A stretch of 64,000 nucleotides of DNA from a virus. Taxonomy: Duplodnaviria > Caudoviricetes. Positions 126 through 42,764 of the stretch are shown piece by piece; position 1 is the stretch's first letter, and every line of letters starts with the position of its first letter. The position numbers were made by a program, and so were the translations under genes. Location of the stretch: positions 1 to 64,000 of the IMG/VR virus record IMGVR_UViG_3300037483_000425; one strand, written 5' to 3'. The notes beneath the pieces were generated by a model. It saw only the letters and a list, made by a program, of their open reading frames with translations, ran no database searches and was not told the DNA's origin.

Positions 126-572
126 ATGAACTTTAATAAGGGACAACTTGTTCAAGTTGATGATAGATTTGGAATATATCTAGAATTTTTTATCGAAAAA
201 AAGACAAATAGACGAAGACCACCTCAAAAATATTCTGTCGAATATCACAAAATCCTTGTTGGCAAACAAATCGCAAAATGCACATGGAACGAAGAAAAGC
301 GAATATTTAAGAACATTTCTAAGCCTTTTTCGAGCTTTAAGCTGCCCAAAATTAGAAAAGTATCTCCAAGCCTTCTTGCGCGAGACTTGGTTTCAGTTCA
401 ACCTATGAGCCTGTCAGGAAAATTGTCATTTTTGGATTACACATATGGCTCAATAGCCACCAGTTCCTTGTCGAGATCCGCCGGGGGTCCTTTGCTGGCC
501 AGCGGCTCCACTTCCCTTCTTAACTCCGGCTCTTTGGGTCCTTGGATGGGCATTCGCCTTGACCTTCCTTAG
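126..572 (+). CDS. Hypothetical protein: SH3/KOW-like N-terminus plus a gp23-type major capsid protein-like segment
   Basis: ATG at 126; residues LPKIRKVSPSLLARDLVSVQPMSLSGKLSFLDYTYG (342-449) resemble the T4 gp23 VRR..P.LIA.D..GVQPM....F.L...YG segment; last ~40 aa are antisense overlap. Confidence 0.6.
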   Translation: MNFNKGQLVQVDDRFGIYLEFFIEKKTNRRRPPQKYSVEYHKILVGKQIAKCTWNEEKRIFKNISKPFSSFKLPKIRKVSPSLLARDLVSVQPMSLSGKLSFLDYTYGSIATSSLSRSAGGPLLASGSTSLLNSGSLGPWMGIRLDLP

Positions 573-725
573 CTCATTATTCGCATCATAAGGATTAAGC
601 GGATTATCATCAATCTCTGGCTCTTCGTCATTATTGAATGGCAAAGAATCTTGAGTTTTCATTACCTTATCAAGATGTTCATGCCATTCAAGCAAATTGC
701 GGATATATTGACGAAGATTATTCAT
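450..725 (-). CDS. Small hypothetical protein with LRxYIRxxLE leader (putative virion internal protein)
   Basis: MNNLRQYIRNLLE N-terminus; TACTTAG motif upstream at 756-762. Confidence 0.65.
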   Translation of the reverse strand: MNNLRQYIRNLLEWHEHLDKVMKTQDSLPFNNDEEPEIDDNPLNPYDANNELRKVKANAHPRTQRAGVKKGSGAAGQQRTPGGSRQGTGGY

Positions 726-726
726 A

Positions 727-1404
727 TTAGTATGGGCTATCAACCAATTTGGGTTCTAAGTATCTTTCAGGGCTTGCATTGCCACGAGCATTCTTCCCCG
801 CTGTGGTAATCATCATAGAACCTCTTTTGTTCACTTTAATTAGTTTCTTCGACAAAAGAGATTGAACAATTGGATTGTCTGAGCTATAAGGGCCAAGATT
901 ATTGTCTTCAAAATATTGTTTTCTATATCCTCCCTTAATTCCTCCAAGAATTGCCAATACTTTTCTTTCTTGATCAGAAACCTCTTCAGTACCTGGAAGC
1001 ATTTTTTCCATATTATCTGGACGAACACGAATACGGGCAAAAGCACCTCGGCCTCCTGTTGAACCCAAAATTACGGCCCCATTTAGAGGAATGGGATATT
1101 CATCTTTGTCGTGCTCAACTTGTTTTTTTTCAAATGGATTTGCTCCGCCCCAAGACCCCATATGAGTTTTGCTTTGTCCTGTTTCCATGTCCATTACAAT
1201 CACAAAACCTCGATTGCCTTTAGAGGCTCCACCACCTTCGCTTGGGCTGTATGTCTCTCCAGACTCAACTTCAATGTCAGGACTCTTGTATCCAACTGAA
1301 GACAATGCTTGGATCATCGCAGGCGGAAGATCCCTTAAGGGAACATGAATGCCACCTCGTATCTCCTTTAATATTTGAGAAACATATTTACGAAGATTAT
1401 TCAT
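727..1404 (-). CDS. Hypothetical protein with leader motif; possible C-terminal winged helix
   Basis: 225-aa ORF starting MNNLRKYVSQILKE; tightly packed with neighbours. Confidence 0.75.
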   Translation of the reverse strand: MNNLRKYVSQILKEIRGGIHVPLRDLPPAMIQALSSVGYKSPDIEVESGETYSPSEGGGASKGNRGFVIVMDMETGQSKTHMGSWGGANPFEKKQVEHDKDEYPIPLNGAVILGSTGGRGAFARIRVRPDNMEKMLPGTEEVSDQERKVLAILGGIKGGYRKQYFEDNNLGPYSSDNPIVQSLLSKKLIKVNKRGSMMITTAGKNARGNASPERYLEPKLVDSPY

Positions 1405-1410
1405 GTTGCC

Positions 1411-3645
1411 TCACTCGTTTATATTTTCAAGGGCTTCATCAATTAATCCAAAAATTTCATATAACGACATTTCTTCTTGAGGCTCTTCTCTCTTTTCTCT
1501 TTGAGATGGTTGAACCGTTGGAAGAATCTTTTGTTTTTTGCGTCTTCCTCTCTTTTTAGGCTGCGGAACAGGGGGAGGATTACCTGCCTCAATCATGCCA
1601 GCAAGCTCTCTCATAGCGTTTTCAAAGCGACCCCAAGCTTCCATAGCAGCATCACCCCTTCTATGAGCCATTTTTAGATTATAACGAACGTCAGCAAGCT
1701 GAGCCCTTTCACTTTTTGTCAAAACCTTGGCAATTGATGCGCTGGATTTTCCAAGATATCTTTGCGTAATCGCATTCATGTCTCTAGACATCTGCTTTGG
1801 ATTATAATTCTGCTCTGCCGAATCTGCCAATTCACGAATTCGTTGAACAAATTCATTCCTTCGATCATTCCGATTCAATTGAATCGGTTCTTCTTCCTCT
1901 TGTGGCATCATTCCTTTCAATGATTCTGCCGCTTTCTTTAGCGCAATGAAGACTGGGATATTTCCATCTTTTTGAGCCAGCTGCATAACTTGCTCAATAA
2001 TGTCAAGCTGATCAGAAACTTCATCAGAACCCAAATTGCCAGCTTCTGACATATCTTGAGCAATTCCTGCAACATATGCTTTTTCATCCAATCCAGGATA
2101 TTCGCTTGCCAAATATTCTGCAAATGACTGATAACGACCTAGAATTGGGTTTTTATATTCAATGAGAAGAAATTGGTAATCCCAAATAGACTCATTCAAT
2201 TCCTTGGACTCTTTTAGTTTTTTTCCATAAACGGAATATTTTTCAAAAAACTTTTTATAAACTTCTTCAACTGCATCAACCTCTGCAAGATCTAAAGGAT
2301 CTTCAGACTTTTTCTTCATCTTGATATAAGTTGGATCATTTTCATAAACGGTATAACCCGATGGGTGTCCGTCCATTTCGCTATTTTGAAGATTTGCACG
2401 AGCTAAGCCGCCAGGCTCAGCTGGAACACTTGGATGCATTTGCTCAGGATCTGTCGCTCCGCTATCATATCCGCTTTTTGCCCCCCAATCCTTAAACCGA
2501 ATATAATTCCCATCAGTTTGCCCGGTCCTTCTGTGCGGCCAAGCATCTCCTTCCGTTTTCCCCTCCAAGGCTTCGCTCAAGGAATCCCTCGATTTATTAA
2601 TTGCAGGTTCTACTTTAGTAACATCTCTCCAAAATAGATCCTCTTTATCGGGTCCAGTCCATTGAATAACATTTCCTTCTGGCTCATCAAAAACAACAGT
2701 AATAGTGTGATCATCTGCGGTGACTACTTGTCCTTCAGCTCCAGCAGGGATTTTAACAGGATAATAATCTTTTCCACCTTGTTGACGATAAACTTGTCCA
2801 ACGGATCTCACAAGCATACCCTTATGAATCTGTAAATCATCGTCCATCAATTCTCCAGGCAAATCATTTCCCTCTTTATCAAATTCTCCCATTTCACTTA
2901 GAGACTCTTTGGATGGCTCATTAGCTTTCCAGTTCCATTTAGGATCTTCTGGACCTTCTTGCATATACCATTTGCTCATGGTATCATCTGTATTTTTAAA
3001 TGGATTGACGTGCTCTCTTTGAACTCCATCATAGGCTTCAAATCCTGGCCCAATTCCTCCTTGAACCGCAAATTCTCCATTATTAAGCATTGCTTGAAAT
3101 CTTTCTTCTTTTTCAATCATTTGATCATCAGCGAGAGCCCTAAATCGTTCAACTTCAGAGATTTCTTGAGCTGGACCTTCCCCCAAAGCCCAATCAAGCA
3201 TTTCTCCCTCAAAAACTGGAGGTTCATATCCGGAATCCCGAAATCCCATACCATAACCACCCATGGCGGAGCCACCTGCTGACAAAGCGTCAATGTCAAT
3301 ATCGTTCCATCCGTCACTTCCCCTGTGGCTTTCGTATTGGGCCGTGCCTTTATTGGCCGGTCCCATAACTCCTGCTCCAACCAACCCAAGCATCATCCCT
3401 TCTTCCAATGACGTCATTGGTTTTTCTTTCTCAATCTCTCCTTCCCATGCTTCAGGATCTTTAGTTTCCCCAATTAACTCCAAAAAACGATCTTCATCAG
3501 ACTCTATGACGGAGACATTCTCTGAAAACATCTCTACATCATCTTCTAATTGCTTTTCGTAAGACTCTACGACATGATCTCTTGTGTCGTCAAAATCGTC
3601 TTCTTCAATCAATCCTGCAAGCATTTCAATGCGCTTATTATCCAT
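1411..3645 (-). CDS. Large acidic hypothetical protein (putative internal head/scaffold-like protein)
   Basis: 744 aa, very D/E-rich, several [LIS]xE sites, internal SH3-like stretch (KGMLVRSVG...GAEGQVV...ITVVFD); TACTTAT upstream. Confidence 0.75.
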   Translation of the reverse strand: MDNKRIEMLAGLIEEDDFDDTRDHVVESYEKQLEDDVEMFSENVSVIESDEDRFLELIGETKDPEAWEGEIEKEKPMTSLEEGMMLGLVGAGVMGPANKGTAQYESHRGSDGWNDIDIDALSAGGSAMGGYGMGFRDSGYEPPVFEGEMLDWALGEGPAQEISEVERFRALADDQMIEKEERFQAMLNNGEFAVQGGIGPGFEAYDGVQREHVNPFKNTDDTMSKWYMQEGPEDPKWNWKANEPSKESLSEMGEFDKEGNDLPGELMDDDLQIHKGMLVRSVGQVYRQQGGKDYYPVKIPAGAEGQVVTADDHTITVVFDEPEGNVIQWTGPDKEDLFWRDVTKVEPAINKSRDSLSEALEGKTEGDAWPHRRTGQTDGNYIRFKDWGAKSGYDSGATDPEQMHPSVPAEPGGLARANLQNSEMDGHPSGYTVYENDPTYIKMKKKSEDPLDLAEVDAVEEVYKKFFEKYSVYGKKLKESKELNESIWDYQFLLIEYKNPILGRYQSFAEYLASEYPGLDEKAYVAGIAQDMSEAGNLGSDEVSDQLDIIEQVMQLAQKDGNIPVFIALKKAAESLKGMMPQEEEEPIQLNRNDRRNEFVQRIRELADSAEQNYNPKQMSRDMNAITQRYLGKSSASIAKVLTKSERAQLADVRYNLKMAHRRGDAAMEAWGRFENAMRELAGMIEAGNPPPVPQPKKRGRRKKQKILPTVQPSQREKREEPQEEMSLYEIFGLIDEALENINE

Positions 3646-4544: not shown

Positions 4545-4877
4545 TTACAATTCATTATCTCGGCCCAATAAATGATTTCGTGCTTTAATCGCTTTTTCAG
4601 CGTGTTTTCTTTTTAAGGATTGAAAATCTCTTAATGTTCCTTCCCACGTTTCTATCAGTTCTGGTGTTGAATATTCTTCTTTATGGAGATAAATAACGCC
4701 AATTGCATTATCAAGAATATCTTTTACCTTCTCCCAAGAATGATAAATTTCTTCAGGATCACTATCCTCCAAATAATCTCTTATTTTTTGGTATATTGGG
4801 TACAATCCTTTAATAAATTCAATTTTCTCACCCTCATATTGAAGATCTTCAAAAATAAATTTACGAAGCATGTTCAT
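4545..4877 (-). CDS. Hypothetical helical protein with short leader motif
   Basis: MNMLRKFIFE N-terminus; overlaps upstream stop. Confidence 0.7.
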   Translation of the reverse strand: MNMLRKFIFEDLQYEGEKIEFIKGLYPIYQKIRDYLEDSDPEEIYHSWEKVKDILDNAIGVIYLHKEEYSTPELIETWEGTLRDFQSLKRKHAEKAIKARNHLLGRDNEL

Positions 4878-6070
4878 TTTATCATTTTAAGCCCTTGCAA
4901 ATAATATTGTGCCAATTCATGACTTTTCCCGCCAGGCAATTGCTTGATCTTGTCGCCAATAATCTTTTTCGCCTGATCTTTGATTGCTTTCTTTGTTCCT
5001 TTTACAGCAAGCTTAGCAACATTTTTTACACTTTCTTGATCTCCAGCCTTTCGTGCAATCTTTTCAAACTTTCCCTTCGTCATTTGATTAAGCTTCTGAG
5101 TGTCTTCCAAATCCAAAGCGTCATGTGTCATTGACACAAATCCATGAACCCAATTTTTAACATAAGATTCGGCATCTTTTTGCATAGATTTGGCGATGGG
5201 ACTTTGTTCAACTCTTTGTTTTATCTCAGGTCCCTTGAAAATATTTTTAATAGCACTAAAAGCCCTTTTCAGCATCTCTATCTCATGAAGCATCTCGGCT
5301 TCTGTTAAAACTATTCCAGACCTTTCATAGTGAGCCTTGAATTGGTATCGAGAGCTTCCTGGTCCACTTGTTTTGCTTGTGGCAAAATGTGTTTTTGGCT
5401 CTCTCCACCAACGACCCATTTTCGTTTTAGGCGTAGAATAGTCCAAGGCTGGAATTGATTTTGGAGAAGGAGAAGTTGGACCACCATGCATCCGACCATA
5501 GTGCTTAACAACTTTTGAATATTCTCTTGCTTTATCTGTTAGATCTTTTGTTGTTCCTGCACTAATAATGTCAATCAATGTAAGTGCTGTATCTGGTGCG
5601 TCTCTCAAAAATCTCCCCGCAATGAAATTGTAAGGAGAAGCTAAAAATCCCATCAATGCAGCATCGCCCGTAAACAAATGTGATTCCGTTCGACCAAATA
5701 CATCTTTGTACTTTTCCTTGATCGCCTCAAGCCTTTGACTCTCTTCTTCGTCATAAGCTTCATAATCGGAAATATAACCAGGCAAAACTAAAGAGATAAT
5801 GTCTTCTGCAAGATACCCTGCAATTTTTTGAAGTTTACTTGAAAATTTTTCAGCAAATGATGCAGTTGTCTTTAAAGGATCAATAAAAGCATTCCAAATA
5901 TCTTTGAAAAAATCCTCGGAAGCTCCATAGCCATATCCTCCCATGCCTCCGCCGCCACCTCCGCCATAGCCTCCATAGCCTCCGTCTCCACCTCCGTCTC
6001 CATCTTCGCTTATTAAACGAACATATTCACGAAGCATTTTATGTTGCCTTTTGTTAAGGTCCCCAGACAT
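4874..6070 (-). CDS. Hypothetical protein with leader motif and Gly-rich segment
   Basis: MLREYVRLISE followed by GDGGGDGGYGGYGGGGGGGMGGYGYG; TACTTAT 4 nt upstream. Confidence 0.75.
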   Translation of the reverse strand: MSGDLNKRQHKMLREYVRLISEDGDGGGDGGYGGYGGGGGGGMGGYGYGASEDFFKDIWNAFIDPLKTTASFAEKFSSKLQKIAGYLAEDIISLVLPGYISDYEAYDEEESQRLEAIKEKYKDVFGRTESHLFTGDAALMGFLASPYNFIAGRFLRDAPDTALTLIDIISAGTTKDLTDKAREYSKVVKHYGRMHGGPTSPSPKSIPALDYSTPKTKMGRWWREPKTHFATSKTSGPGSSRYQFKAHYERSGIVLTEAEMLHEIEMLKRAFSAIKNIFKGPEIKQRVEQSPIAKSMQKDAESYVKNWVHGFVSMTHDALDLEDTQKLNQMTKGKFEKIARKAGDQESVKNVAKLAVKGTKKAIKDQAKKIIGDKIKQLPGGKSHELAQYYLQGLKMIK

Positions 6071-6074: not shown

Positions 6075-6081
6075 ATAAGTA
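6075..6081 (-). promoter_or_regulatory. Putative late-promoter motif TACTTAT
   Basis: Motif immediately upstream of ATG at 6070. Confidence 0.5.
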
Positions 6082-10207: not shown

Positions 10208-10548
10208 TGTTCTTCTTTATTCGCAAATAATTCTTGTTGACCATGAAGTTGCTCCTGAACTCTTGTCCAACGACGTCCAAAATATAATCCTATAAGGGGT
10301 ATCAGAACTGTTGTAGCGAATCCCATGTCAAATGATCTAAATGCAACTGCATAAGTCGCAATGCTTAGTGTTTCTATGGCGCCCAGTCCCGCAAGCATAA
10401 GAGAGAAAAAAAAGGCAATAAGCATTAAAGTTAGTGCAGCATCTTTTCCTCCTTTGCTATTTTTTATCATCCACCAATTGTCTTTCATTATTAATGCTCC
10501 GAAACCGCCATAAAACAGCAGCTTTGTCTTCATAATAATTATGTTCAA
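10204..10548 (-). CDS. Small membrane protein (holin-like, tentative)
   Basis: Two to three hydrophobic helices, charged C-terminus. Confidence 0.5.
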   Translation of the reverse strand: MNIIIMKTKLLFYGGFGALIMKDNWWMIKNSKGGKDAALTLMLIAFFFSLMLAGLGAIETLSIATYAVAFRSFDMGFATTVLIPLIGLYFGRRWTRVQEQLHGQQELFANKEEQ

Positions 10549-10835
10549 GAATCACTAATGACAAAATCAATTCGAAACATTGTCCACTCATTGATTGGAG
10601 AATGACGAACCTTAATAATTAAGGATTCGGTTTCTGTTGATGCATTTTCAATAGACCAATCAAAATCGTAATCCTCTTGTATGCAAATCAGCTCTCCTTT
10701 AAGAAAGTCGCATGCCTCATTTGTAGTCATTAATGCAAGCAAAGACTGAACTTCATTCAGCATTTGACGTACAGCTTTGACTTGTTTTGGTGAACAATCA
10801 ATGTTTTCTAAATAAACAATATCATCTAATTTCAT
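10545..10835 (-). CDS. Hypothetical protein
   Basis: 96-aa ORF. Confidence 0.65.
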   Translation of the reverse strand: MKLDDIVYLENIDCSPKQVKAVRQMLNEVQSLLALMTTNEACDFLKGELICIQEDYDFDWSIENASTETESLIIKVRHSPINEWTMFRIDFVISDS

Positions 10836-16431: not shown

Positions 16432-16438
16432 TATTTAT
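16432..16438 (+). promoter_or_regulatory. Putative late-promoter motif TATTTAT
   Basis: 4 nt upstream of the GTG start of a leader-bearing ORF. Confidence 0.5.
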
Positions 16439-16442
16439 AATC

Positions 16443-16619
16443 GTGGAAGACCAACTAAGACAATTTGTTAGGTCAATAATTCAAGAAAAAGGACCAATTG
16501 TTTCTAGAGAATATAAAGCCTACAAGGGGTCTAAGAAGGCTGGCGCAGACGATCCTGAAGCGATGGCTGCGGCTGCCACAATTGCAATTAAAGGGAAGCC
16601 TGCCAGCAAAGACGAATAA
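16443..16619 (+). CDS. 58-aa protein with leader motif (not in ORF track)
   Basis: GTG start, MEDQLRQFVRSIIQEKG...; stop overlaps next ATG (TAATG). Confidence 0.65.
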   Translation: MEDQLRQFVRSIIQEKGPIVSREYKAYKGSKKAGADDPEAMAAAATIAIKGKPASKDE

Positions 16620-17044
16620 TGTTATTACGTGAATACATACGCTCCGTTTTGCTTGAAAGGCGAGAATATGACATTTCCACAGAAGGAACGAGCTATTCTG
16701 AGAATCAAATAAAGAAATTTATCAAATTCGCAGCCAATGAACTCAAATTAAAAGAAGTTCCAAAAATTGAGATTGTTCAACGCATCCCGAAAGGCACAAC
16801 AGGAGCATATCACTTTGGCGGAGAATCAAAAAAGATCCAGGTTCGTGGCAATGGACGAAAACTCGTTGATATTTTGAGAAGCTTGGCGCACGAACTTGTT
16901 CACCACAAACAAAAAGAACAAAAAAGACTTCGCAAGATAAGTAAATCCGGCATTGGCGGAAAGATTGAAGACGAAGCAAATGCCAAAGCTGGACAACTTA
17001 TCAAAAAATATGGAAAAACGTATAAGCGACTATATAGCGCCTAA
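16619..17044 (+). CDS. Zincin-like metallopeptidase with leader motif
   Basis: LAHELVHHKQ (HExxH) and downstream EDEAN; N-terminus MLLREYIRSVLLE. Confidence 0.8.
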   Translation: MLLREYIRSVLLERREYDISTEGTSYSENQIKKFIKFAANELKLKEVPKIEIVQRIPKGTTGAYHFGGESKKIQVRGNGRKLVDILRSLAHELVHHKQKEQKRLRKISKSGIGGKIEDEANAKAGQLIKKYGKTYKRLYSA

Positions 17045-22205: not shown

Positions 22206-22654
22206 AAAATCTCCGATAAAAATGTTTGTATTCTTTCTCTTAATTCAGGATGTGCAGGATTCCCCCATCGATCATACCCAATAACATTACAGATAACAAT
22301 TTTGTCCTTATTGTTGTTAATTGATTCTTGCAATTTCTCAACAAATTCAGATGGAATATTATCTCTTTTGGTAAAAAGATCTGTATTAAGAAATAATTCT
22401 TCCAGATTTGGACGATTACAAACTATTGTTAAATCTGAATCTTCAATTTGGCGAGAGATAACACTAGGATGCCACCGCATAAAACCTGTTGCATATACAT
22501 TTTTATATCCCAGTGCACTCAAATGCATTGCCATGCTAACACTTCTAACCTGACCATAATTGCAAAGTGTTAAAAGTTTTATTTCTTCTTTTTGCTTATT
22601 TGGCAGATCTGACACCAATAGTTTGTCTCTATATTCCATATCTAATTTACTCAT
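22202..22654 (-). CDS. Low-molecular-weight phosphatase-like protein
   Basis: LLTLCNYGQVRS = CX5RS P-loop after the first strand. Confidence 0.6.
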   Translation of the reverse strand: MSKLDMEYRDKLLVSDLPNKQKEEIKLLTLCNYGQVRSVSMAMHLSALGYKNVYATGFMRWHPSVISRQIEDSDLTIVCNRPNLEELFLNTDLFTKRDNIPSEFVEKLQESINNNKDKIVICNVIGYDRWGNPAHPELRERIQTFLSEIL

Positions 22655-22832
22655 TTATAGCCTCCCAATTGCCACCCACATTAAAAGAAAATGTTATGTA
22701 ATCTATCTTTTTGTGGACATAAACCGTCCCAGAAAACCTATTATTTAGTACATCATCTAATTTGGGTCCATTCATTTTAATGGAAAAAGATAAAGAATCT
22801 CTGATTTCTTGAGAGATATTATTAAGTTTCAT
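22647..22832 (-). CDS. Small hypothetical protein
   Basis: 61 aa. Confidence 0.55.
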   Translation of the reverse strand: MKLNNISQEIRDSLSFSIKMNGPKLDDVLNNRFSGTVYVHKKIDYITFSFNVGGNWEAINE

Positions 22833-23407
22833 TTTGTTTCTCCATAAGCAAAATGATGTCGATCAACATGATTTTGCTTAATATTTGCGCTTACATATTC
22901 AAGGTTTGGCATGACTCGATAAATAAGTTCCCACAACCCTTTGTCTGGATATTCTTCTTTAAGTTTGCTTATGTCGTCCGAGCCGGGTGGTCCCGTTACC
23001 ATCATTTCAATAATTAATGAAGCTTTATCACAAACTTTGACCATTTGTTTTGTAATTCCGTCTGGCGGTTCCACCCCTAAAAATGACCAAATTTTGCTGT
23101 CCAAAGCATCTTCAAGACTATGAATGGCATTTCTAACTTCTGGTGTATGATTTTTAATTGGGGAAGGAATGTCTCCAGTATAAGCTTCATGAAAATCATG
23201 CCCCAATGCGTAAACCATCTTATCCAAAGGAAATCCCGCAACCATCCAAATGATTGCTACAAGAACGCTATGATGTAAAACAGAAAACTCATTGTCTCCG
23301 TTATTGCCAAAGCGTTTGTAACGTCCAAGAAGAACTACAATGTCCAATGGGCAAACAAGCCCATGTTCCCCCGATAATGGGGACAATTGTCCGGTCCATG
23401 TTCTCAT
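22829..23407 (-). CDS. HD-domain phosphohydrolase (YfbR/deoxynucleotidase-like)
   Basis: FSVLHHS, GHDFHEAYTGDIPSPIK, VKVCD. Confidence 0.85.
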   Translation of the reverse strand: MRTWTGQLSPLSGEHGLVCPLDIVVLLGRYKRFGNNGDNEFSVLHHSVLVAIIWMVAGFPLDKMVYALGHDFHEAYTGDIPSPIKNHTPEVRNAIHSLEDALDSKIWSFLGVEPPDGITKQMVKVCDKASLIIEMMVTGPPGSDDISKLKEEYPDKGLWELIYRVMPNLEYVSANIKQNHVDRHHFAYGETK

Positions 23408-24096
23408 ACTATCACCTTAATATTCGCCTTCTCAAAATGCGCAGTCGCATTCTCACTCAATGGAAACCTATAACAAATCGGGAATAGAGCGCTTATTCCA
23501 ATATCTTCATTAGTGGTTTTGGAGATAACCTTTTCTTCATTGCCAACTCTCATTACCGACTTTATCTCTATTGAAAAATCTTCCATATCATCGTAATATC
23601 GAATTGCAGCACATACTGGACCTTCGAAAACTTCGCATATTGTTAGCTGTTTTGATCCCAAAAGCATAACAACATTTGACCTTCGATGAAGATTGCCAAG
23701 AGTTACAACTCCCATATATCTTCTAATGCGATCTCCCCTTTCGTTATATTCCGACCATCCAGCATATTTGATGTGCTTATGAGAATTGGGAGAAAATTTC
23801 CATCTTCCCGACCTTCCTATCTCATATTGCTCAGTTGTTATAGAATAGAAAGGGAAATAAAACCTACAAAGACCATCATCTATGCGCCACAACTCTTTTG
23901 CATATGAATATAAAGCTTGAAAAGTCATGTCAGATTTGACATCAATAATCTTTCTGTCTGTATCAAAAGTAACATCATAATTTGTAATCAAATTTGGATC
24001 TTTAATGATTTTCAAATCTTGAACAGAGATAAGCTCTCCATACTTTTTCCAATAAGCATCAAAACAAACACTTGAACAAATATTATTCAGTTTCAT
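23404..24096 (-). CDS. Hypothetical protein
   Basis: 230-aa ORF. Confidence 0.7.
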   Translation of the reverse strand: MKLNNICSSVCFDAYWKKYGELISVQDLKIIKDPNLITNYDVTFDTDRKIIDVKSDMTFQALYSYAKELWRIDDGLCRFYFPFYSITTEQYEIGRSGRWKFSPNSHKHIKYAGWSEYNERGDRIRRYMGVVTLGNLHRRSNVVMLLGSKQLTICEVFEGPVCAAIRYYDDMEDFSIEIKSVMRVGNEEKVISKTTNEDIGISALFPICYRFPLSENATAHFEKANIKVIV

Positions 24097-24286
24097 TCTT
24101 CTTTTCCTCTTTTAATTTGTCAATTTCTGCTTGAAGAGCAGAACATCTCATGTCAACATAATACTCAATCGCCTCGCAAAGCTCTCCGATCGCGCTATTC
24201 ACTGCAATTCTCTTTGTCCAAGACAAAAGATCCAAAAGCTTAAGCGTCTTTGGGGCTTTCTGTTTTAAAACTTGATCTAATTTCAT
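24083..24286 (-). CDS. Small hypothetical protein
   Basis: Likely start MKLDQVL with GAGG RBS. Confidence 0.6.
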   Translation of the reverse strand: MKLDQVLKQKAPKTLKLLDLLSWTKRIAVNSAIGELCEAIEYYVDMRCSALQAEIDKLKEEKKNETE

Positions 24287-24294
24287 ATTTCCTC

Positions 24295-25314
24295 TCAGAA
24301 TAGTTTCTCTTTCCATGTTTTGGGAATATTGTCCTTGTTGTCGATTTCTAACTGAACATGATAATCAAATGACATAGCGCCTCGATTGCGAATATAATTA
24401 ACAATAGATTTGATTCCTTCTTCTAAAGTAATGGTTGGCTTAAATCCAAACTTTTCACGAATCTTATTGGATGAACAAATAGGTCTTTTTACTTCGAATG
24501 GCCTATACGGAACAATCTCAGGTTCTACGTTTGATCCCATAATATTAATAACAAGATAAGCCAAGTCTAAAAGAGAGATTTCCCTATCATCGGGTCCGAT
24601 GTTGAAGATTTCTCCATTCTCTCTCAGATCATAGTCTAACAGCTTGATGAATAAATTTACATCATCCTGGATCATCGAAAAGCATCGCGTTTGACCCCCT
24701 CCATAGACAACAGGACTTCTTCCTTGCAATATAAGATTAACCCATATTGATATAACATTTCTAAACGGATCTGTATATCGTTGCCTGGGACCTATCACGT
24801 TGTGTGGAACCGTGTGAATGACTTCCAGGCCATGCAGTTTTGCTAATAGGTTTAACTGGTCTTCTGCTGCCACTTTCGCCAAGGCATATGGGTCAACCGG
24901 ACATGTCCGCATATCTTCTGTGAATGGAGATTCCTGATCTCCATATCGGCTCATGGAAGAGCAGTTTATAAAACGTTTAACGCCAGCCTTGATGGCGGCA
25001 GTAGCAACGTTGACTGTTCCTGTGAAAACGCTATTAGAGATACTCGCGGGAGCAAAAACACTATATCCTTCATGCGCCAAAGCTGCGGTGTGATAAACAA
25101 CATCGCAACCCATCATTTCTTGTGCCATCGTCTCTACTTCATCGATATCAGTTATATCCAACGTCAACAAACTATGATTTGGATGCTGAATGACGGAATC
25201 AGGATATCCTCCAATGAAATTTTCAAAAGAAACAACCTTGTGTCCTTGTTCTAGAAGTTTTTCAGAAATCCATGAGCCAATCAATCCTGCTGGACCAGTA
25301 AGTGCAATTTTCAT
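24295..25314 (-). CDS. NAD-dependent NDP-sugar epimerase/dehydratase (second copy)
   Basis: IALTGPAGLIG, CSSMSRYG, YALAK, HNVIGP. Confidence 0.92.
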   Translation of the reverse strand: MKIALTGPAGLIGSWISEKLLEQGHKVVSFENFIGGYPDSVIQHPNHSLLTLDITDIDEVETMAQEMMGCDVVYHTAALAHEGYSVFAPASISNSVFTGTVNVATAAIKAGVKRFINCSSMSRYGDQESPFTEDMRTCPVDPYALAKVAAEDQLNLLAKLHGLEVIHTVPHNVIGPRQRYTDPFRNVISIWVNLILQGRSPVVYGGGQTRCFSMIQDDVNLFIKLLDYDLRENGEIFNIGPDDREISLLDLAYLVINIMGSNVEPEIVPYRPFEVKRPICSSNKIREKFGFKPTITLEEGIKSIVNYIRNRGAMSFDYHVQLEIDNKDNIPKTWKEKLF

Positions 25315-25546: not shown

Positions 25547-28500
25547 TTATGTAGGTATTTCCATGACCTCAGAAATTTTGGCAGAATATCCTCTTTCATT
25601 AGAATTTACATATCCTAAGTAGCCTTTCAATTTGTCCATATTTGAATCATCCGTCCAATCCCACAAGCATACTCTTTCCTGTTTACCTGATATTCCGCTT
25701 ACAGTCATAATCAAAAAGGGCTTCCCATACTGTGTCTTTTTTACAATATAGTCCTCAAGAATAAACCATACTAACGCAGCCGGCGCATTCTCAGGGAATT
25801 CATTAATTGAAACATATCCCTTTTCTCTCAATTTGTTCTGCGCTTTCTTGGAAAGAATCAAATCTAAATCCATTTCTCCCATAAGCTCTTTGTAAATGGA
25901 TAGCTTCTCTTGAATGCTCCAGTCTGAAGAATCTGTTTCAGCAGCTAAATTATCAAGCTTCTCACATTGCGTATCCCAATTATCTTTCTTAAGCCTCTTC
26001 TTCAAAAGCATCCAATTATCAATAATGGTTCGAAACATATGAGCATAATTGGAAAATAACTTTCCATCTCCAACGCAATTAAGGCTATCAAATGCTCCAA
26101 TCTTAAGCAAAGCGGAAACATTCCTTTTATTGCACTTGCTGTGCTTAAAATTCCCTTCATCGTCCCATAAAAAGTCATAGATTGATGAATACGGTCTTTT
26201 TGACTCAATCTCTGCAACCGCTGTTTTCCCTGCGCCTTTACACGAGATAAAGGAAGGCATGAACTTTTTGGAATTATCAACAACGGTCCAGTGATCCGTT
26301 GCCTTATTAATATCAATATTTGCAATATCATATCCAAAACCTTTTAGCTCAGATATGGCTTTCGCTTTTTCGTCCGGATTTCCGAGCTGAGTTTCAACAT
26401 AAGCACAGAGCCATTCCGGCTCATAATAAGTCAAAAGCCATGCGCAGAGATAAGAGTTAATGGCATAAGAAACGGCGTGAGAATTGCTAACGCTAATTCC
26501 ATTTGCATAAAAAGAGTGATCAGGATGATCAACTTCCAGATCATAAGTTTCTCCATGCCCAATAGTCTCAACTTTTTGAATTTTGTCGTATAAGGCATCA
26601 GATATAACTATACTCATGCCATTGTTTATGATGGCTTTTAGCGGGACCATACCATTTTTTGTTTGGATTTTATGATCCAAAGTACAAATAAGAGTCTTCC
26701 CACTTTCTGTTGTTATTTTTACTAATTTCTTTTTTCCATTACAAATCCGATCTTTCACTTGAACCCACCCATTAATGCTATTTACAAAATCTCCAATATT
26801 TACATCTTTAATTTTCGTATTTCCGATCCCTTTTACTTCAACAATTGTATTTTCCCACAAACACTTATTGAACGAATATTTTGCAAAAGACTTAATGTTT
26901 TCATACAAGGATTCTGCCAGACTTTTTGATATGCCATTATTTAAAGCCCCTTCAATAAATGCTTTTTCTAATTCAAGAGCTTTCATGTATAAAGGCGTCC
27001 CAGGTTCTGGTTTTTTTGACACCACTTTTCTCAAAGTGTCACAATCGTCTAATGGTAATCCTCCAACCACATTGCCCAATTTCATTGCTTGTTCCTGAAA
27101 AACAAGATAACCATAAGTTTCTTCCAAGACTTCCTTGATTAAAGGATGAGGGTATTTTATTTTGCTTGGGTCCTGTTTCGCTTTAGAATATTTCCGATGG
27201 ACATGTGCCTCCATGGGGCCAGGACGATATACCGACGTAAGCGCGGCAATATCGATAATATTTCTCGGCTTGGCTTCCATAAAGAATCTTTGCGTATCTC
27301 TTTGCGAACACTGAAAAATACCAGCAAAATTTCCTGCGCGGTAAACATGTTCGTACACATGTTGATCATCCAAATCAATAACATTTGGATGAAGATTAGA
27401 ATCATACCATTTTTTAATGTCTTCAAATTCTGGATTTTTTATATTATGGTGACGCTCAAGAATAAGAGCAATGCACTGCTCAATAATTTTCAATGTTTCT
27501 AAACCAAGAAGATCATACTTTACCCACCCCAGAGGCTCTAAATAATCTTTCGTCCAAGGTGTCTGTTTGACATTTTTAGACAAAATTGTAGGCATTCTTT
27601 CAAAAATATTCTCTGAAAGAATAATCCCACCAGCATGCCTGCTAATTGCTTTTTGTTCTCCTGTCAATTCTAGAATATGCTCTCCAACATTAGGGTATTT
27701 CTCAATAAATTCTCTAAACCTCAAAGAATACTTCATCGCATTATCATAATCAATTGACACCTTTTCAAGATCGTCTTTTTTTGACCCTGCAATTATCTCT
27801 TTGTCTACATTTTTAATCGCATTATTAGCTTCAACAAACTCAATTCCATAAAATTTAGCAAGATCCTTGGTCAAGCTCTTCAAACTTAAAGAATTGATGT
27901 TTGAAATTGCGATTACATTTTCATCACCAAATTCTTTCATTAAGAGTTTTCTTAATAAGTCTCGATCAGAAAAGTCGCTGTCAATATCAGGAAGTTCGGA
28001 CCTATCTTTGCTTAAAAATCTTGAAAAAAGCAAATCATATTTTAAAGGATCAATTCCTGTAATGTCAAGAACATAACATAATAACGAAGCGCTAGCAGAC
28101 CCTCTGCCGAATCCAACAAGCATATGCTTATGGGCAAGATCTGTAATCGCTTTCATTGTAAGAAAATACTTTGCAAAATCTTTCTCTTTAATGACTTGCA
28201 ATTCTTCATTAAGTCGAACAATGTAATCAAGCTGATTGTCTAAACCTTTTGCTTCCAATCCTTCTTTCGCCATCTTCGCCAATGCTTGCATTGGCTTGAG
28301 ACCCTCCGGAACCGTATACGAAGGTAACTTAACCTTTCTGTCAGGCTCAATGTCTTCAATCATATCATGCGCAATATCGTAAGACCTTTCAATAGCTTCG
28401 CAAACAATATCGTCTTCATAAAAGTCATATTTGGGCTTATGCTCCAAATATTCATCCCACATTTGATCGGCATTCTTTGGATATAGTTCGCACTTTAATT

Positions 28501-29416
28501 CGTCAACAGAATTTGGCAACGGATCATCATCCCACGATCCCGGCCTCAAGCGTCTATAAAGCTCTCTAGCTTTCCACTTGTCCATTCCTGGGTAGTGGCT
28601 ATCCGCCGTTACAATTAGTTTAATCCCAGTTTTTTTGGCAGCTTGAGTTATCAGATAGTTAACGGCATGCTGCGGAGCCAACTTGTTGAATTGAAGTTCT
28701 AAAAAGAAGTTTTCTTCACCGACAGCTTCGACAAAATTGTCGATAACATTTTCAAAACGAGGAAGAATAATGTGTTCTCTTTTCTTGACTTCATCAACGG
28801 TAACGTCTTCCCACTCCAGGTCTTCACATGCCATAAACATTTCGTAAGCCAATGGACCGCCCAAGCACGCTGTTGTTGCAATAAGGTTTCCTTTTGCTTT
28901 CTTTTGGAGTTCGTGATAATCAATTCTTGGGAAATAATATTGTCCCTTTGTATAGCCAAAGGACACGAGGCTAAAGAGGGATTCGAGCCCTTCATTGTTT
29001 TTTGGCAAAATGACAACATGATGTCGCCTTCTAAGAGGGTTTCGCCTTTTAGATCTTGTTGCATTCTCGTCTTCAACTGTTATTGTCTTTAAATCATCAT
29101 CATCTGATGTAATATTCTTTTTGTCTTTTTTTCGCTTTTCGTGCTCTTCTTTCTCTTTCTCCCAGTCTCCTAAATCTGGGTGTAGATAAAACTCAACGCC
29201 CGGAACATATTTGAAATCTCTTCCCTCTTTTTTTAGCTTCTCATATGCCTTATAAGCTTCAGCAAAAGAATTAGCATGACCATGCTCTGTGATGGCCATC
29301 CCATTCATTCCGTTGTTTAAAACAAACTCGAAATGCTCATGGGGTTTGCCGAGTCCATCATAATTGGACGCCCCAGTATGAGCATGTAATCCAAAGAATT
29401 TTTTTGGTTCTACCAT
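25547..29416 (-). CDS. dnaE: DNA polymerase III alpha subunit (family C), intein-containing
   Basis: PHP motifs HAHTG..DG and TEHGH; GRGSASASL, LPDIDSD, SRHAGG, KYDLLGL, SFNK|intein|SHAVSY; likely start MVEPKK. Confidence 0.95.
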   Translation of the reverse strand: MVEPKKFFGLHAHTGASNYDGLGKPHEHFEFVLNNGMNGMAITEHGHANSFAEAYKAYEKLKKEGRDFKYVPGVEFYLHPDLGDWEKEKEEHEKRKKDKKNITSDDDDLKTITVEDENATRSKRRNPLRRRHHVVILPKNNEGLESLFSLVSFGYTKGQYYFPRIDYHELQKKAKGNLIATTACLGGPLAYEMFMACEDLEWEDVTVDEVKKREHIILPRFENVIDNFVEAVGEENFFLELQFNKLAPQHAVNYLITQAAKKTGIKLIVTADSHYPGMDKWKARELYRRLRPGSWDDDPLPNSVDELKCELYPKNADQMWDEYLEHKPKYDFYEDDIVCEAIERSYDIAHDMIEDIEPDRKVKLPSYTVPEGLKPMQALAKMAKEGLEAKGLDNQLDYIVRLNEELQVIKEKDFAKYFLTMKAITDLAHKHMLVGFGRGSASASLLCYVLDITGIDPLKYDLLFSRFLSKDRSELPDIDSDFSDRDLLRKLLMKEFGDENVIAISNINSLSLKSLTKDLAKFYGIEFVEANNAIKNVDKEIIAGSKKDDLEKVSIDYDNAMKYSLRFREFIEKYPNVGEHILELTGEQKAISRHAGGIILSENIFERMPTILSKNVKQTPWTKDYLEPLGWVKYDLLGLETLKIIEQCIALILERHHNIKNPEFEDIKKWYDSNLHPNVIDLDDQHVYEHVYRAGNFAGIFQCSQRDTQRFFMEAKPRNIIDIAALTSVYRPGPMEAHVHRKYSKAKQDPSKIKYPHPLIKEVLEETYGYLVFQEQAMKLGNVVGGLPLDDCDTLRKVVSKKPEPGTPLYMKALELEKAFIEGALNNGISKSLAESLYENIKSFAKYSFNKCLWENTIVEVKGIGNTKIKDVNIGDFVNSINGWVQVKDRICNGKKKLVKITTESGKTLICTLDHKIQTKNGMVPLKAIINNGMSIVISDALYDKIQKVETIGHGETYDLEVDHPDHSFYANGISVSNSHAVSYAINSYLCAWLLTYYEPEWLCAYVETQLGNPDEKAKAISELKGFGYDIANIDINKATDHWTVVDNSKKFMPSFISCKGAGKTAVAEIESKRPYSSIYDFLWDDEGNFKHSKCNKRNVSALLKIGAFDSLNCVGDGKLFSNYAHMFRTIIDNWMLLKKRLKKDNWDTQCEKLDNLAAETDSSDWSIQEKLSIYKELMGEMDLDLILSKKAQNKLREKGYVSINEFPENAPAALVWFILEDYIVKKTQYGKPFLIMTVSGISGKQERVCLWDWTDDSNMDKLKGYLGYVNSNERGYSAKISEVMEIPT
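26483..26863 (-). mobile_element. Mini-intein (127 aa, no endonuclease) in DnaE
   Basis: CLWENT start, TLDHK block B, YDLEV block F, ends GISVSN followed by Ser. Confidence 0.9.
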
Positions 29417-29423
29417 AACTTTG

Positions 29424-29639
29424 TCAACAATATGGGTTGCTTGCGCCTGAATGCTTACCCATTTCAAAGGCATAAAGAAGCATTCTCACAATGTCGTCAT
29501 AAATGACTTCTTTTGGATACCCCTTTCCTTGTTCAAGAAGAGCATCTTCAAACATTTTGTTTAGTTTTTTATCTTCATCATGAAGCCATTCCTCGGCACA
29601 CCCGTAAACTTCAGCTTCTTCTATGTTTACATCATACAT
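29424..29639 (-). CDS. Small hypothetical protein
   Basis: Likely start MYDVNIEE. Confidence 0.6.
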   Translation of the reverse strand: MYDVNIEEAEVYGCAEEWLHDEDKKLNKMFEDALLEQGKGYPKEVIYDDIVRMLLYAFEMGKHSGASNPYC

Positions 29640-30889: not shown

Positions 30890-32458
30890 TCACATATCAA
30901 GCGCTTCTTGCTCTTTTCTTCTTTCTTCTTTTTCTTCTTCTTTCAATTGCCAATAAGCTTTTTCCCATGCTTCTTGCATAGCCGGCATAGCTTTGTCAAT
31001 GTCTTGACAATAACGTAAAAAGCTCGCAAAATCATCAGGATGCCCTATCGAATTACCATCTGGTGTGATGTCGAATGAATATCCTGTTACCATTGCTCCT
31101 TCCTCAATCGTGCTTGCAATATAGAAATCCAAATCAACAACACCATTTGATGCTTGATTGACAATATCAAGAGCTTTCTCCAACTCTTTTCTTGTCATTT
31201 TAAAATATTCTTCATCATCTGGGTTTTCAAGAGATATGCCGCCCGTCCAACGAATAAAAGGTTCATCTTCTAATCCACCAACCTCCCAGTCAATCCAAAC
31301 ATTAGAAATGTCTTCAGCTAAAGTGTCATAATATTGTTGAGCTTCTTGCTCATATTGCTCTTCAATTGAAACAGCTTCTTCATTTTCATATTCAACATGA
31401 CCAGAATATGCTTTAGTTTCGAAGAAATTGTTCAAAAGCGAACCACCAGCCGTGTCTGAATATGTTCCTCCGCGAATCTTAATTTGACTTTGCGGAGGGA
31501 GTTCAACTTCTCCATTATCATCATAAAAATCAGATATTTGATTTTCACGCGACCATTCTAAAACTTTATCTTCAAAACCTCCTACGTCCAACCCATAAGT
31601 CCTTTCTTCTGGCACTGCCAAATCATATTCTTCATCACCATAATCAATAACGAAATTTCTTATTCTCAATCTTGAAATCGGCTTAATTCCTTCAATGCTT
31701 CGTTCTTTATCTTCAAAAATTTCAGGCTGATTTAAATCAATAGATTCAAAATCATTTTTGTTTACCATATACGCTATGGCTCCACCATTTTGGGCTTCTT
31801 GAATTGCGCATTTCCAATATGATCCTCCTTTAGAATGGCAAGATTTCAAATTCTTGTAATCGCTCATTCTAAGAAGATCAATTGGTGCCCTAGAAATAAT
31901 GATCGCATATCCACTTCCTTCACGAGAATAATCGTCATACAAGTCTTGGATTGTATATAAGACCATCATTGTTCTGGCAATTTCGTCAGTTATTACCTCA
32001 TATATTCCTTCTCCGGTTCTTCTTCTCCACCATCTTCTTCTTTCTTTATTATAGAGAAAGAATGGGGCATGTCTTCTACCGTGCATTTCTATTGCCTCAA
32101 CAACAGCGGCCTCTTGTTCGGGAGATAACATGCTCTTGAATTTTTTACTCAATTCTCTTTCTATTTTGGCCAGAACTTTCCCCAGTCTTCCAACAGTTTT
32201 TTGTGGGCCTTTGCGTGTTTCAACTACTTTGTATGCTTTTTTATTATCAATATCGACTTCATATCCATAATCGTCTTCTAAAATATCTTTAATATCTTTC
32301 ATTGTATCTGAAACGAAAGGAAGAGCTACTCTCAAATTTCCTTTGAATAACTCTTCAAATGGCAAATCACCCCTTTCAGACAATGCATTCTGAACGGTTC
32401 TCATGTCCAATTCCAAAAGAAAGCCTTTCAAAAATTCTCGTAGCAATCTCACATTCAT
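30890..32458 (-). CDS. Large hypothetical protein with leader motif (putative packaged protein)
   Basis: MNVRLLREFLKGFLLE; TATTTAT overlaps the start codon. Confidence 0.75.
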   Translation of the reverse strand: MNVRLLREFLKGFLLELDMRTVQNALSERGDLPFEELFKGNLRVALPFVSDTMKDIKDILEDDYGYEVDIDNKKAYKVVETRKGPQKTVGRLGKVLAKIERELSKKFKSMLSPEQEAAVVEAIEMHGRRHAPFFLYNKERRRWWRRRTGEGIYEVITDEIARTMMVLYTIQDLYDDYSREGSGYAIIISRAPIDLLRMSDYKNLKSCHSKGGSYWKCAIQEAQNGGAIAYMVNKNDFESIDLNQPEIFEDKERSIEGIKPISRLRIRNFVIDYGDEEYDLAVPEERTYGLDVGGFEDKVLEWSRENQISDFYDDNGEVELPPQSQIKIRGGTYSDTAGGSLLNNFFETKAYSGHVEYENEEAVSIEEQYEQEAQQYYDTLAEDISNVWIDWEVGGLEDEPFIRWTGGISLENPDDEEYFKMTRKELEKALDIVNQASNGVVDLDFYIASTIEEGAMVTGYSFDITPDGNSIGHPDDFASFLRYCQDIDKAMPAMQEAWEKAYWQLKEEEKEERRKEQEALDM

Positions 32459-40953: not shown

Positions 40954-40965
40954 TTTGTTATCAAC

Positions 40966-41147: not shown

Positions 41148-41543
41148 TCAATCAAATTCTGGAACTGTATAAGGATGGTGAGAAATCTTCTCATCCATTA
41201 TTTTCCCATCAACAATATTCTTCCAAGCGAATGTCATGCCGTTACGATCCTCGGGGACCTTTCTTCCATGAAGAACTGCCTTTTGATTATATTTGAAACC
41301 GAGATCGATCAAATGTCTCATTGATATATTCGGAACAAGATAACAGTTTTCTCCGAAATAACTTGCGGGAATAACATCATAACCTAAAGATTGGAGATCA
41401 GCTAATAAAGATTCGTTAGACTGATTATTGAATTCTGGGCCTGTTTCAACCTCTTGAGGGTTCTCTGCGGTAATAAGCCCTATTTGATTCAGCTTATGAG
41501 AGAAGAACTCTCTCAAAAGAGCTTTAATCAACTTCCGAGCCAT
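41148..41543 (-). CDS. DUF3293/SAM-lyase-like small protein (tentative)
   Basis: ITAENP...N..N..L...L...GY...ENCYLV...LG.KYNQKAVL pattern. Confidence 0.5.
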   Translation of the reverse strand: MARKLIKALLREFFSHKLNQIGLITAENPQEVETGPEFNNQSNESLLADLQSLGYDVIPASYFGENCYLVPNISMRHLIDLGFKYNQKAVLHGRKVPEDRNGMTFAWKNIVDGKIMDEKISHHPYTVPEFD

Positions 41544-42495
41544 CGCCCCACGCCCTCATTGATGGTTCGTAATGCTTCTTATTTTTTTTTCTTTTTTTTT
41601 CAGCAGAGTTTCCGCCCTTCATTCCCAAAGGCCCAGTGTATCCTCTAATCTGTCCAGAAGGCTGTCCTGCCATTCCCATGGCTCCGCCTCCAACTGCCGA
41701 AACCTCATTCGTTGGAGTTTCGCTATCATCCATAGGATCTTCAGGACCATCATCCTTGAATCCACCTTCTCCCTCAAGCTCTCCCAAAATTTCAGATTCA
41801 GTCATTTCAGAATGTGACGCTTTCTCAATAGCATCTTCTAAGTCACCCGAATATTCCATCGCACCATCTTCTAAATTATATGCAACGTATCCATCATAAT
41901 CGCCAAAAACACCTATAATCATTCCAGTTTGAGGATTCTTATATATGTCCCAATTTCCAGATAATTTTCCAAAATTCATATTTCTAGTATCAGTGAACAC
42001 AAACATACCAGCAGAGGTTTGAACAGGCGCATCTCGATACTCTAAAATCATTCTCCTTAAATAAGAACGCAATAATAGTGACTCTTCCATATTATTATAA
42101 ATATGTTCTGGATCCTTTATTCCAGGCCCTGACTGCTTTCTTATGGCATCATGTCCTGCCTTCATGTAGTCAGAATAATAACGAGGAAAAGTATAAGGAG
42201 GATCAAAAGTCGCTCCCTTATCTTCCGGATCATCAGGATCTCCCATCCAATATTCAGTATCTTCAGGCGTTGATGTTTGTTGCATCATTCTGCTTGCCAT
42301 CATTGTTGGTGCCTGATTGGGCATCCCTGTCTGCCCTGCTCTTGGCCAAGGTTTGGGCGGTCTACTTTGAAGATGTGTACTATGCGGCGCCATTGGCCCA
42401 ATAGCTCCACCTCCATGACGATTCCTGTTCTTATTCAATCCGAAAATAGATCTAAGAGTATAAGTTCCGTCAGTTGTTTCATCTTCTTCTTCCAC
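41524..42495 (-). CDS. Acidic low-complexity hypothetical protein with internal leader-like motif
   Basis: GTG start; internal EESLLLRSYLRRMILEYRD. Confidence 0.7.
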   Translation of the reverse strand: MEEEDETTDGTYTLRSIFGLNKNRNRHGGGAIGPMAPHSTHLQSRPPKPWPRAGQTGMPNQAPTMMASRMMQQTSTPEDTEYWMGDPDDPEDKGATFDPPYTFPRYYSDYMKAGHDAIRKQSGPGIKDPEHIYNNMEESLLLRSYLRRMILEYRDAPVQTSAGMFVFTDTRNMNFGKLSGNWDIYKNPQTGMIIGVFGDYDGYVAYNLEDGAMEYSGDLEDAIEKASHSEMTESEILGELEGEGGFKDDGPEDPMDDSETPTNEVSAVGGGAMGMAGQPSGQIRGYTGPLGMKGGNSAEKKRKKNKKHYEPSMRAWGDGSEVD

Positions 42496-42507
42496 ATAAA
42501 TACTTAT
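42496..42507. promoter_or_regulatory. Overlapping back-to-back TAyTTAT motifs (putative bidirectional late promoter)
   Basis: ATAAATACTTAT reads TATTTAT on - (next to GTG 42495) and TACTTAT on + (8 nt before ATG 42516). Confidence 0.6.
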
Positions 42508-42515
42508 TTAGCGAA

Positions 42516-42764
42516 ATGGATAACCTTCGCCAAATAATAAGAACACAACTTTTAGAATATCGAGATGGAAAAACTGAGCCAGATGTTCTCGTAGGAAACA
42601 ATCCAGAATCAACAGATCAACTAATCGACAACATTATTAAAACACTTTATGAACTCAAAGGTCAAGACATTGAACCGTATAAGGAAATGCTCCAAAATAT
42701 GTTCAAAACGATTCAACAAGTCGATACAAGCGACATATCAGATCTTGGCCTTGCCGATTCATAA
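42516..42764 (+). CDS. Small protein with leader motif
   Basis: MDNLRQIIRTQLLEYRD. Confidence 0.7.
   Translation: MDNLRQIIRTQLLEYRDGKTEPDVLVGNNPESTDQLIDNIIKTLYELKGQDIEPYKEMLQNMFKTIQQVDTSDISDLGLADS

Follow-up and report, generated by a model that had tools for sequence, protein, structure and literature searches.

What is the function of a short peptide with which otherwise unrelated proteins of a giant phage begin? This question is raised by a 64,000-nucleotide stretch of viral DNA (positions 1 to 64,000 of IMG/VR record IMGVR_UViG_3300037483_000425, hereafter the window), which forms the start of a 76,685-bp viral contig with a CheckV completeness of about 25% and which, judged by its genes, comes from a far-T4 jumbo phage. 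Twelve open reading frames (ORFs) of this contig share an amphipathic leader that opens with Leu-Arg and in nearly all cases closes with [LI]-x-E. Comparison with phage T4 and with related uncultured phages makes it reasonably probable that the element is a lineage-specific capsid-targeting and cleavage leader of the T4 type, and the proteins that carry it are probably packed into the virion. Injection of this cargo and an effector role would be further steps, held less firmly than capsid targeting itself. The capsid-targeting principle has been known since the 1990s and no new mechanism is proposed here; the novelty lies in this leader itself, in the size of its cargo and the enzymes predicted among it in an uncultured clade of jumbo far-T4 phages, and in the availability of a cultured relative for testing.

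Sequence features of the leader

The pattern M-x(0-4)-L-R-x-[YFI]-[IVLFM]-x(3-5)-[LI]-x-E describes the leaders of the 12 contig ORFs, ten of which lie in the window, one of the ten being weak (Table 1). In a six-frame scan, LR[QKERS][FYI][IVFL] directly follows a start codon at ten window sites and at two sites beyond the window. The core LR.[FYI][IVFLM] starts within the first 16 residues of 10 of the 93 called ORFs, or of 13 once starts are corrected, compared with seven interior occurrences in 22,942 positions (Fisher p = 9e-9), and per-protein shuffling yields 0.3 on average and never more than 4 in 1000 trials. With the Leu of L-R as position 1, hydrophobic residues occupy positions 1, 4, 5, 8 and 9, and the mean hydrophobic moment is 0.55 versus 0.30 in controls. 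Since the leader is not hydrophobic overall, it is neither a signal peptide nor a membrane anchor. The [LI]-x-E motif closes 11 of the 12 leaders, usually followed by a Gly/Pro/acidic linker.

The copies encode Leu with CTT, CTA, TTA or TTG and Arg with CGT, AGA, CGA or CGC, and this variation among synonymous codons shows that selection acts on the peptide rather than on a DNA or mRNA element. Once stripped of the leader, the bodies of the twelve proteins are mutually unrelated (best pairwise BLASTP E 0.05). Moreover, in both Pfam-assigned cargo proteins the domain model begins just past the leader, at residue 25 for Acb1 and at residue 24 for DUF3293. Replication enzymes carry no N-terminal leader and contain only two interior chance matches. 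An earlier note on this DNA had listed ten leaders on unrelated proteins and had stated that no replication enzyme is tagged; all ten sequences are present where it had placed them, both statements hold, and the motif is not equally frequent in protein interiors, the outcome that it had named as adverse. Of its ten cases, 41148-41543 is a weak one, with a displaced motif that lacks the closing [LI]xE.

Conservation of the leader in related phages

The survey of relatives covered 80 related loci, a further two loci from metagenomes and the whole of the 211-kb record G001, and it yielded 104 non-redundant leaders at the N-termini of proteins 58-1214 aa long. They share the consensus L-[RK]-x-[IYF]-[IV]-x-E-E, often with MK[IL]T-x-x-Q ahead of it; the Glu at +7 is present in 61 of the 104, and [LIVMF]xE follows the core in 82% of leaders, the figure for interior windows with the same core as anchor being 34%. 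In the 211-kb record, about 19 of 344 ORFs are tagged and a loose form of the regular expression is N-terminally enriched (p = 7e-7); for ten of these tagged proteins no Pfam family was found. Leaders of the LREYIR type and of the LRKIIxEE type occur together in one genome, which identifies them as variants of a single motif. Additionally, orthologs of three cargo proteins retain the leader in diverged form, the ortholog of 4874-6070 in locus L062 carrying LLREYIEAVV and that of 16619-17044 in locus L002 carrying MLLEAYIQEVFKE.

The 522-aa cargo protein (30890-32458) extends the comparison to other lineages. It is a member of a large family with 872 representative clusters (50% identity) at E<=1e-3, and among its best 150 homologs about 40 begin with M-x(1-3)-F-x-x-[FYW]-[LIV]-x-E and about 11 are of the LL.EYI type. 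Homologs in other lineages bear leaders resembling the T4 sequence, for example MKTFRQFIE, which is nearly identical to it, and MRTFRQYLE. As these N-termini differ by lineage, the same body wears different lineage-specific leaders. Among deposited phage genomes, the family gives one weak partial match (E 9e-6, in an uncultured-phage record) and none in cultured phages.

An analogous leader is found in a cultured phage, Flavobacterium phage vB_FspM_immuto_2-6A (NC_055915), where four annotated ORFs, gp003, gp076, gp077 and gp092, begin with M..(N)F[DN]L[KR]xFLxE (Table 1). Two of these adjoin replication genes (ssDNA-binding protein and primase) and two lie just upstream of the terminase gene; one of the four is annotated as a cob(I)alamin adenosyltransferase.

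Correspondence with the T4 capsid-targeting sequence

The T4 internal proteins IPI, IPII and IPIII, together with Alt, carry a capsid-targeting sequence (CTS) that is removed by gp21 (Mullaney & Black 1996; PMC9026906, PMC3012670). Ten residues are enough for packaging and gp21 cleaves after Glu, residues 4 and 7 governing targeting and residues 8 and 10 processing (PMC9026906); CTS-like sequences in T4 relatives have already been noted in reviews. In the T4 record, ipII and ipIII both begin with MKTYQEFIAE, and the clade consensus L1-x-x-[IYF]4-[IV]5-x-E7 maps one-to-one onto T4 Y4-x-x-F7-I8-x-E10. The two systems have in common, at the level of the clade consensus, the template hydrophobic-x-x-hydrophobic-[I/V]-x-E with the gp21 motif (L/I)xE at its end, and in both a short N-terminal leader precedes otherwise unrelated, fast-evolving proteins. 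Both also combine a T4-type head module with tagged genes dispersed outside the head cluster; in T4, ipII and ipIII map to 65.7 and 66.4 kb, and the head genes occupy 101-107 kb. Unlike the T4 CTS, the leader described here opens with L-R and has one internal copy, and in the phage of the window it is one helical turn longer, so that the first five positions fit the T4 template and the Glu follows one turn later, mostly at +10 or +11. At least 12 tagged proteins are predicted from a quarter of a genome here and about 19 in the 211-kb relative, versus three or four in T4.

If the leader acts as in T4, it would dock its protein onto the scaffolding core of the prohead during head assembly through its amphipathic face, a gp21-type prohead serine protease would cut past the Glu of the closing [LI]-x-E, and the mature protein would remain in the head with the DNA and could exit with it at infection.

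The head module of the relatives contains the components expected of such a system. Specifically, in the relative L005, whose major capsid protein (MCP) is 76% identical, the gene order is portal, a 284-aa ORF, protease, several small ORFs, scaffold and MCP; the portal is of the T4 type (Pfam 8e-68) and the protease, at L005:4739-5356, is a T4 gp21-type Peptidase_S77 (Pfam 1e-22, phrog_207 2e-42). A prohead protease is present in 47 relatives. Two ORFs of the relatives that lie between protease and scaffold, an acidic one of about 80 aa and another of about 140-250 aa, both start with the leader, as in MKLTSxLLKKIIAEEV and MGITKxQLKAIVKECLVEILAEG, or MKKSEFREFVKEMF in closer relatives. These two proteins resemble T4 gp67 and gp68 in size, charge and position; they have no significant Pfam or PHROG family (weak PHROG hits, E 0.001-0.04) and no match in cultured phages. 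In T4, (L/I)xE likewise ends short N-terminal segments of gp67 (MEGLIE), gp21 (..LLIE), gp22 (..LIAE), gp24 (..LLRE) and Alt (MELITE), and the two head-module proteins of the relatives, by bearing the cargo leader, recall the propeptides of the core proteins gp67, gp21, gp22 and gp24. In an MCP alignment, moreover, the T4 gp23 maturation site LTE↓A falls on a clade-conserved L-[RK]-E↓S.

Two further observations concern the same genes. The protease of two relatives begins with a tag-like LLREY, probably a coincidence, because the clade consensus at that place is LLNSYEVFDY. The portal gene of L005 (L005:49-3885) encodes 1278 aa, among them an intein that bears an HNH endonuclease (Pfam Intein_splicing 1e-28), whereas the portals of other relatives measure about 650 aa.

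Cleavage after Glu is also known from giant phages. The ejection or inner-body proteins of phiKZ, 201phi2-1 and SPN3US are cut after Glu by gp21-related proteases (PMC5694885, PMC7411985). The clade described here resembles these three in being composed of jumbo phages and in the prospect of many head-packaged proteins trimmed after Glu. Their cleavage motifs are S/A/G-x-E or A-x-E at the end of long propeptides, with no single short shared leader; the present clade, in contrast, combines a T4 gp23-type MCP with a uniform leader of about 12 residues.

Predicted cargo

The best-supported enzyme among the cargo, on domain and motif evidence, is a predicted Acb1-like 2H phosphodiesterase encoded at 70302-70835. 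It matches Pfam Acb1 (PF23474) with 40.3 bits (cutoff 27, E 3e-10), the domain begins past the leader, and both HxT/S motifs are present (H58-C-T and H135-I-S). The AlphaFold2 (AF2) model of this protein, with a predicted local distance difference test score (pLDDT) of 40, failed to confirm the fold, and a word-indexed homolog search returned the query itself only. This protein did not figure in the earlier list because its gene lies outside the window.

The HELVH-containing protein 16619-17044 is possibly a mini-zincin or an ImmA/IrrE-like metallopeptidase. In its AF2 model (pLDDT 63), a leader helix at residues 3-11 is followed by an unstructured segment (12-27) and then by a globular domain, for which Foldseek returns only weak matches (E 0.06-0.3) to jannalysin, PprI/IrrE and Wss1. 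The earlier note had taken this protein for a peptidase: its HExxH motif is indeed present, and the resemblance of its modelled fold to peptidases is weak. A SAM (S-adenosylmethionine) lyase, which had also been suspected among the cargo, finds no counterpart, as no tagged protein has such a match in Pfam, PHROGs or NCBIfam. Acb1-like phosphodiesterases and HExxH proteins are not known as T4 head cargo.

Among the other tagged proteins, 41148-41543 contains DUF3293 (Pfam PF11697, E 8e-9). The 522-aa family, which has no Pfam family, displays a near-invariant box SRAPIDVLRMSDF-N-QSCHS-GG-Y-CA-EA-GGA-AY, whose conserved Cys and His suggest an enzyme or a metal site. The remaining tagged proteins have no family in Pfam, PHROGs or NCBIfam, and an Atlas search retrieved viral hypothetical proteins only.

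An upstream element shared with structural genes

The octamer TAyTTAkw (TA[CT]TTA[TG][ATC]) occurs 41 times in the contig, versus about 86 expected from base composition. It is located upstream of 8 of 17 structural genes, 6 of 12 tagged genes and 4 of 65 other genes (p = 6e-4), and, counted by operon, it heads units holding 10 of the 12 tagged genes. No copy of the classic T4 late promoter TATAAATA precedes the structural genes. Co-regulation of the tagged genes with the head genes through TAyTTAkw is suggestive only, given the closeness of the element to start codons and its non-conservation in relatives, both detailed below.

Evaluation of alternative explanations

The earlier proposal of a T4-like CTS ending in a gp21-type (I/L)xE gains comparative support from the gp23-type MCP, the Peptidase_S77 of the relatives, the clade consensus, the leaders within the head module and the LxE of the MCP, and fits less well in the position of the Glu. 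Its suggestion that the leader could serve as a protein-delivery tool is not a new idea, since the T4 CTS has been so used since 1993-1996 (PMC9026906).

Several observations weigh against a T4-type capsid-targeting leader. In the phage of the window the Glu is mostly at +10 or +11, whereas both the clade consensus and T4 have it at +7. One copy of the leader probably lies inside its protein (41524-42495), and one listed case is weak (41148-41543). The contig ends before the protease region, placing its own protease and head-core genes beyond the contig end, and for this reason protease and portal are known from relatives only; the members of the clade, in turn, are all uncultured. In the head-module proteins of the relatives, profile comparison detects no homology to T4 gp67 or gp68 (hhalign probability below 1%), so that a gp67/gp68-like role is assigned to them by position and size only, and their leaders show no within-genome co-variation with the cargo leaders (permutation p = 0.32, 8 genomes, low power). 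Finally, TAyTTAkw is often separated from the start codon by just 3-7 nt, an unusually short distance for a -10 promoter element, and it is not conserved upstream of the MCP gene in relatives (5 of 59).

The strongest competitor, which we consider unlikely and yet worth serious attention, is that the leader is a shared, uncleaved docking or assembly tag for a partner other than the prohead, such as a chaperone, a membrane surface, a replication or transcription factory or a host target. Most tagged genes are indeed dispersed among replication and nucleotide-metabolism genes and not in the head module, the late-promoter argument is weak, and co-variation with the head-module leaders was not detected. 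However, the T4 internal-protein genes are likewise dispersed outside the head cluster, the [LI]xE ending is far above chance both here and clade-wide, the leader matches the experimentally defined T4 CTS template, and it is also found on ORFs within the head module.

Appreciably less probable is a role of the tagged proteins as prohead-targeted components of the scaffolding core that are degraded at maturation and are not injected as effectors. T4 gp67, gp68, gp22 and gp21, most of which are degraded, bear N-terminal segments ending in [LI]xE, and several tagged ORFs are small, of low complexity and without families. Some of the cargo, on the other hand, consists of predicted folded enzymes with intact catalytic motifs (both HxT/S in the Acb1-like protein, HExxH in another), and sizes reach 522 aa here and 1214 aa in relatives, which makes a purely scaffolding role hard to reconcile.

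Recognition of the leader by a modifying enzyme, in the manner of the leaders of ribosomally synthesized and post-translationally modified peptides, is very improbable, because radical-SAM PF04055 was not found in the contig and four related records (up to 211 kb) while it was found in 14 of 14 control genomes, and the leader shows no pattern of Cys, Ser or Thr such as modification sites typically have. Chance, N-terminal compositional bias or hidden paralogy is the least credible explanation of all: amphipathic N-terminal helices are common and the regular expression gives some interior matches, but the enrichment recurs in the independent record G001, far exceeds the shuffled expectation, and the protein bodies show no similarity to one another.

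If, as the capsid-targeting interpretation holds, the leader works as in T4, the virion cargo of abundant uncultured giant aquatic phages would be listable from sequence alone, capsid-loaded cargo would be far larger and more enzymatic than that of T4, and it might include an anti-CBASS-type (cyclic-oligonucleotide-based antiphage signalling system) nuclease delivered ahead of gene expression. More speculatively, and with considerable doubt, this clade of uncultured far-T4 jumbo phages of about 300 kb may pre-load some 5% of its proteome by means of one portable leader, the load including the Acb1-like phosphodiesterase, the zincin-like peptidase and jointed two-module proteins, with counter-defence enzymes arriving with the DNA before phage gene expression.

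Arrangement of the tagged genes

The coordinates of the tagged genes and of the other features discussed are collected in Table 1. The ORF 450-725 has a codon-usage score of 0.33 and overlaps a plus-strand ORF (120-572) that scores 0.07, typical genes scoring about 0.4-0.5; on account of this low score, 120-572 may not be a real gene. The start of 4545-4877 overlaps the stop of 4874-6070, and the pair therefore looks like one operon.

The leader copy within 41524-42495 is probably truly internal, as had been noted earlier: codon usage is coding-like over the whole ORF, including the 135 codons in frame ahead of the copy. The product may consist of two cargo modules joined at the leader, or it may be a 188-aa protein started at the ATG at 42090; the latter is possible because this ATG and the shared upstream element directly precede the leader copy. 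The neighbouring ORF 42516-42764 is divergent from 41524-42495, and an LE-YRD junction is common to its leader and the internal leader of the latter.

Table 1. Positions of tagged ORFs and of other features on the contig and in Flavobacterium phage vB_FspM_immuto_2-6A
Feature	Position	Strand	Leader or N-terminal motif	Other data
91-aa tagged ORF, basic C-terminus	450-725	-	MNNLRQYIRNLLE, nt 687-725	
225-aa tagged ORF, no family	727-1404	-	MNNLRKYVSQILKE, nt 1363-1404	Downstream of 1411-3645, whose upstream element is TACTTATA
110-aa tagged ORF	4545-4877	-	MNMLRKFIFE, nt 4848-4877; IFE at +5 to +7	
398-aa tagged ORF (387 aa from Met12 at 6037)	4874-6070	-	MLREYVRLISE, nt 6005-6037, then Gly-rich linker	Upstream element TACTTATT at 6081
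58-aa basic tagged ORF, GTG start	16443-16619	+	VEDQLRQFVRSIIQE, nt 16443-16487	Upstream element TATTTATA at 16432
141-aa tagged ORF	16619-17044	+	MLLREYIRSVLLE, nt 16619-16657	HELVH at residues 91-95
522-aa tagged ORF	30890-32458	-	MNVRLLREFLKGFLLE, nt 32411-32458	
131-aa ORF, weakly tagged	41148-41543	-	LLREFF from residue 9, without [LI]xE	DUF3293 at residues 24-90
323-aa ORF, internal leader copy	41524-42495	-	MEESLLLRSYLRRMILE, nt 42040-42090, residue 142	Element TATTTATA at 42103, before the leader copy
82-aa tagged ORF	42516-42764	+	MDNLRQIIRTQLLE, nt 42516-42557	Upstream element TACTTATT at 42501
Tagged ORF beyond the window	66676-67293	-	MKNLLREYINFLIKE	
Tagged ORF beyond the window, Acb1-like	70302-70835	-	VLLLREYMRILFE	
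gp23-type MCP, beyond the window	71879-73756			Pfam Gp23 2e-74
Scaffold-like protein, beyond the window	73787-75841			Long coiled coil
gp18-like tail-sheath paralog, about 1000 aa	57968-60970	-		Adjacent to the next
gp18-like tail-sheath paralog, about 1000 aa	61006-64041	-		
ORF with second N-terminal motif, window	10545-10835	-	M-(x)-[KE]-L-[DN]-[NQD]-[IV]	
ORF with second N-terminal motif, window	22017-22205	-	Same motif	
ORF with second N-terminal motif, window	22647-22832	-	Same motif	
ORF with second N-terminal motif, window	23404-24096	-	Same motif	
ORF with second N-terminal motif, window	24083-24316	-	Same motif	
ORF with second N-terminal motif, contig	69292-69957		Same motif	
ORF with second N-terminal motif, contig	69977-70294		Same motif	
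immuto ORF with analogous leader	NC_055915 1803-2318			
immuto ORF with analogous leader	NC_055915 103806-104354			
immuto ORF with analogous leader	NC_055915 117631-118632			
immuto ORF with analogous leader	NC_055915 118632-118931			

Genomic context and other features

Coding is mostly on the minus strand across the contig, and neck genes, like those for MCP and scaffold, sit downstream of the window. The closest cultured phages, all distant with MCPs 33-46% identical, are Microcystis phage Mel-JY01, Flavobacterium phage vB_FspM_immuto and Rhodothermus phage RM378. IMG/VR contains related stretches in a number of at least 599, and the scan of a single metagenome retrieved relatives at 58-60% identity only. 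The genome size of roughly 300 kb follows from the 211-kb relative, which is rated 65% complete.

At least seven small, otherwise dissimilar ORFs begin with another motif, M-(x)-[KE]-L-[DN]-[NQD]-[IV], which is not followed by an [LI]xE ending. Among the replication genes, a 394-aa ORF at 43769-44953 (minus strand) contains a family-A DNA polymerase domain (Pfam DNA_pol_A, 1e-10) and adjoins a 185-aa ORF at 43215-43772 (minus strand); the two may represent a split or fragmentary PolA. The DnaE-like label of the 1308-aa ORF 25547-29473 derives from an N-terminal PHP-like motif alone. The two tail-sheath paralogs have similar N-termini (MVELTFKSPGVS and MAEQTFRSPGFF), and the same pair is present in relatives such as L005.

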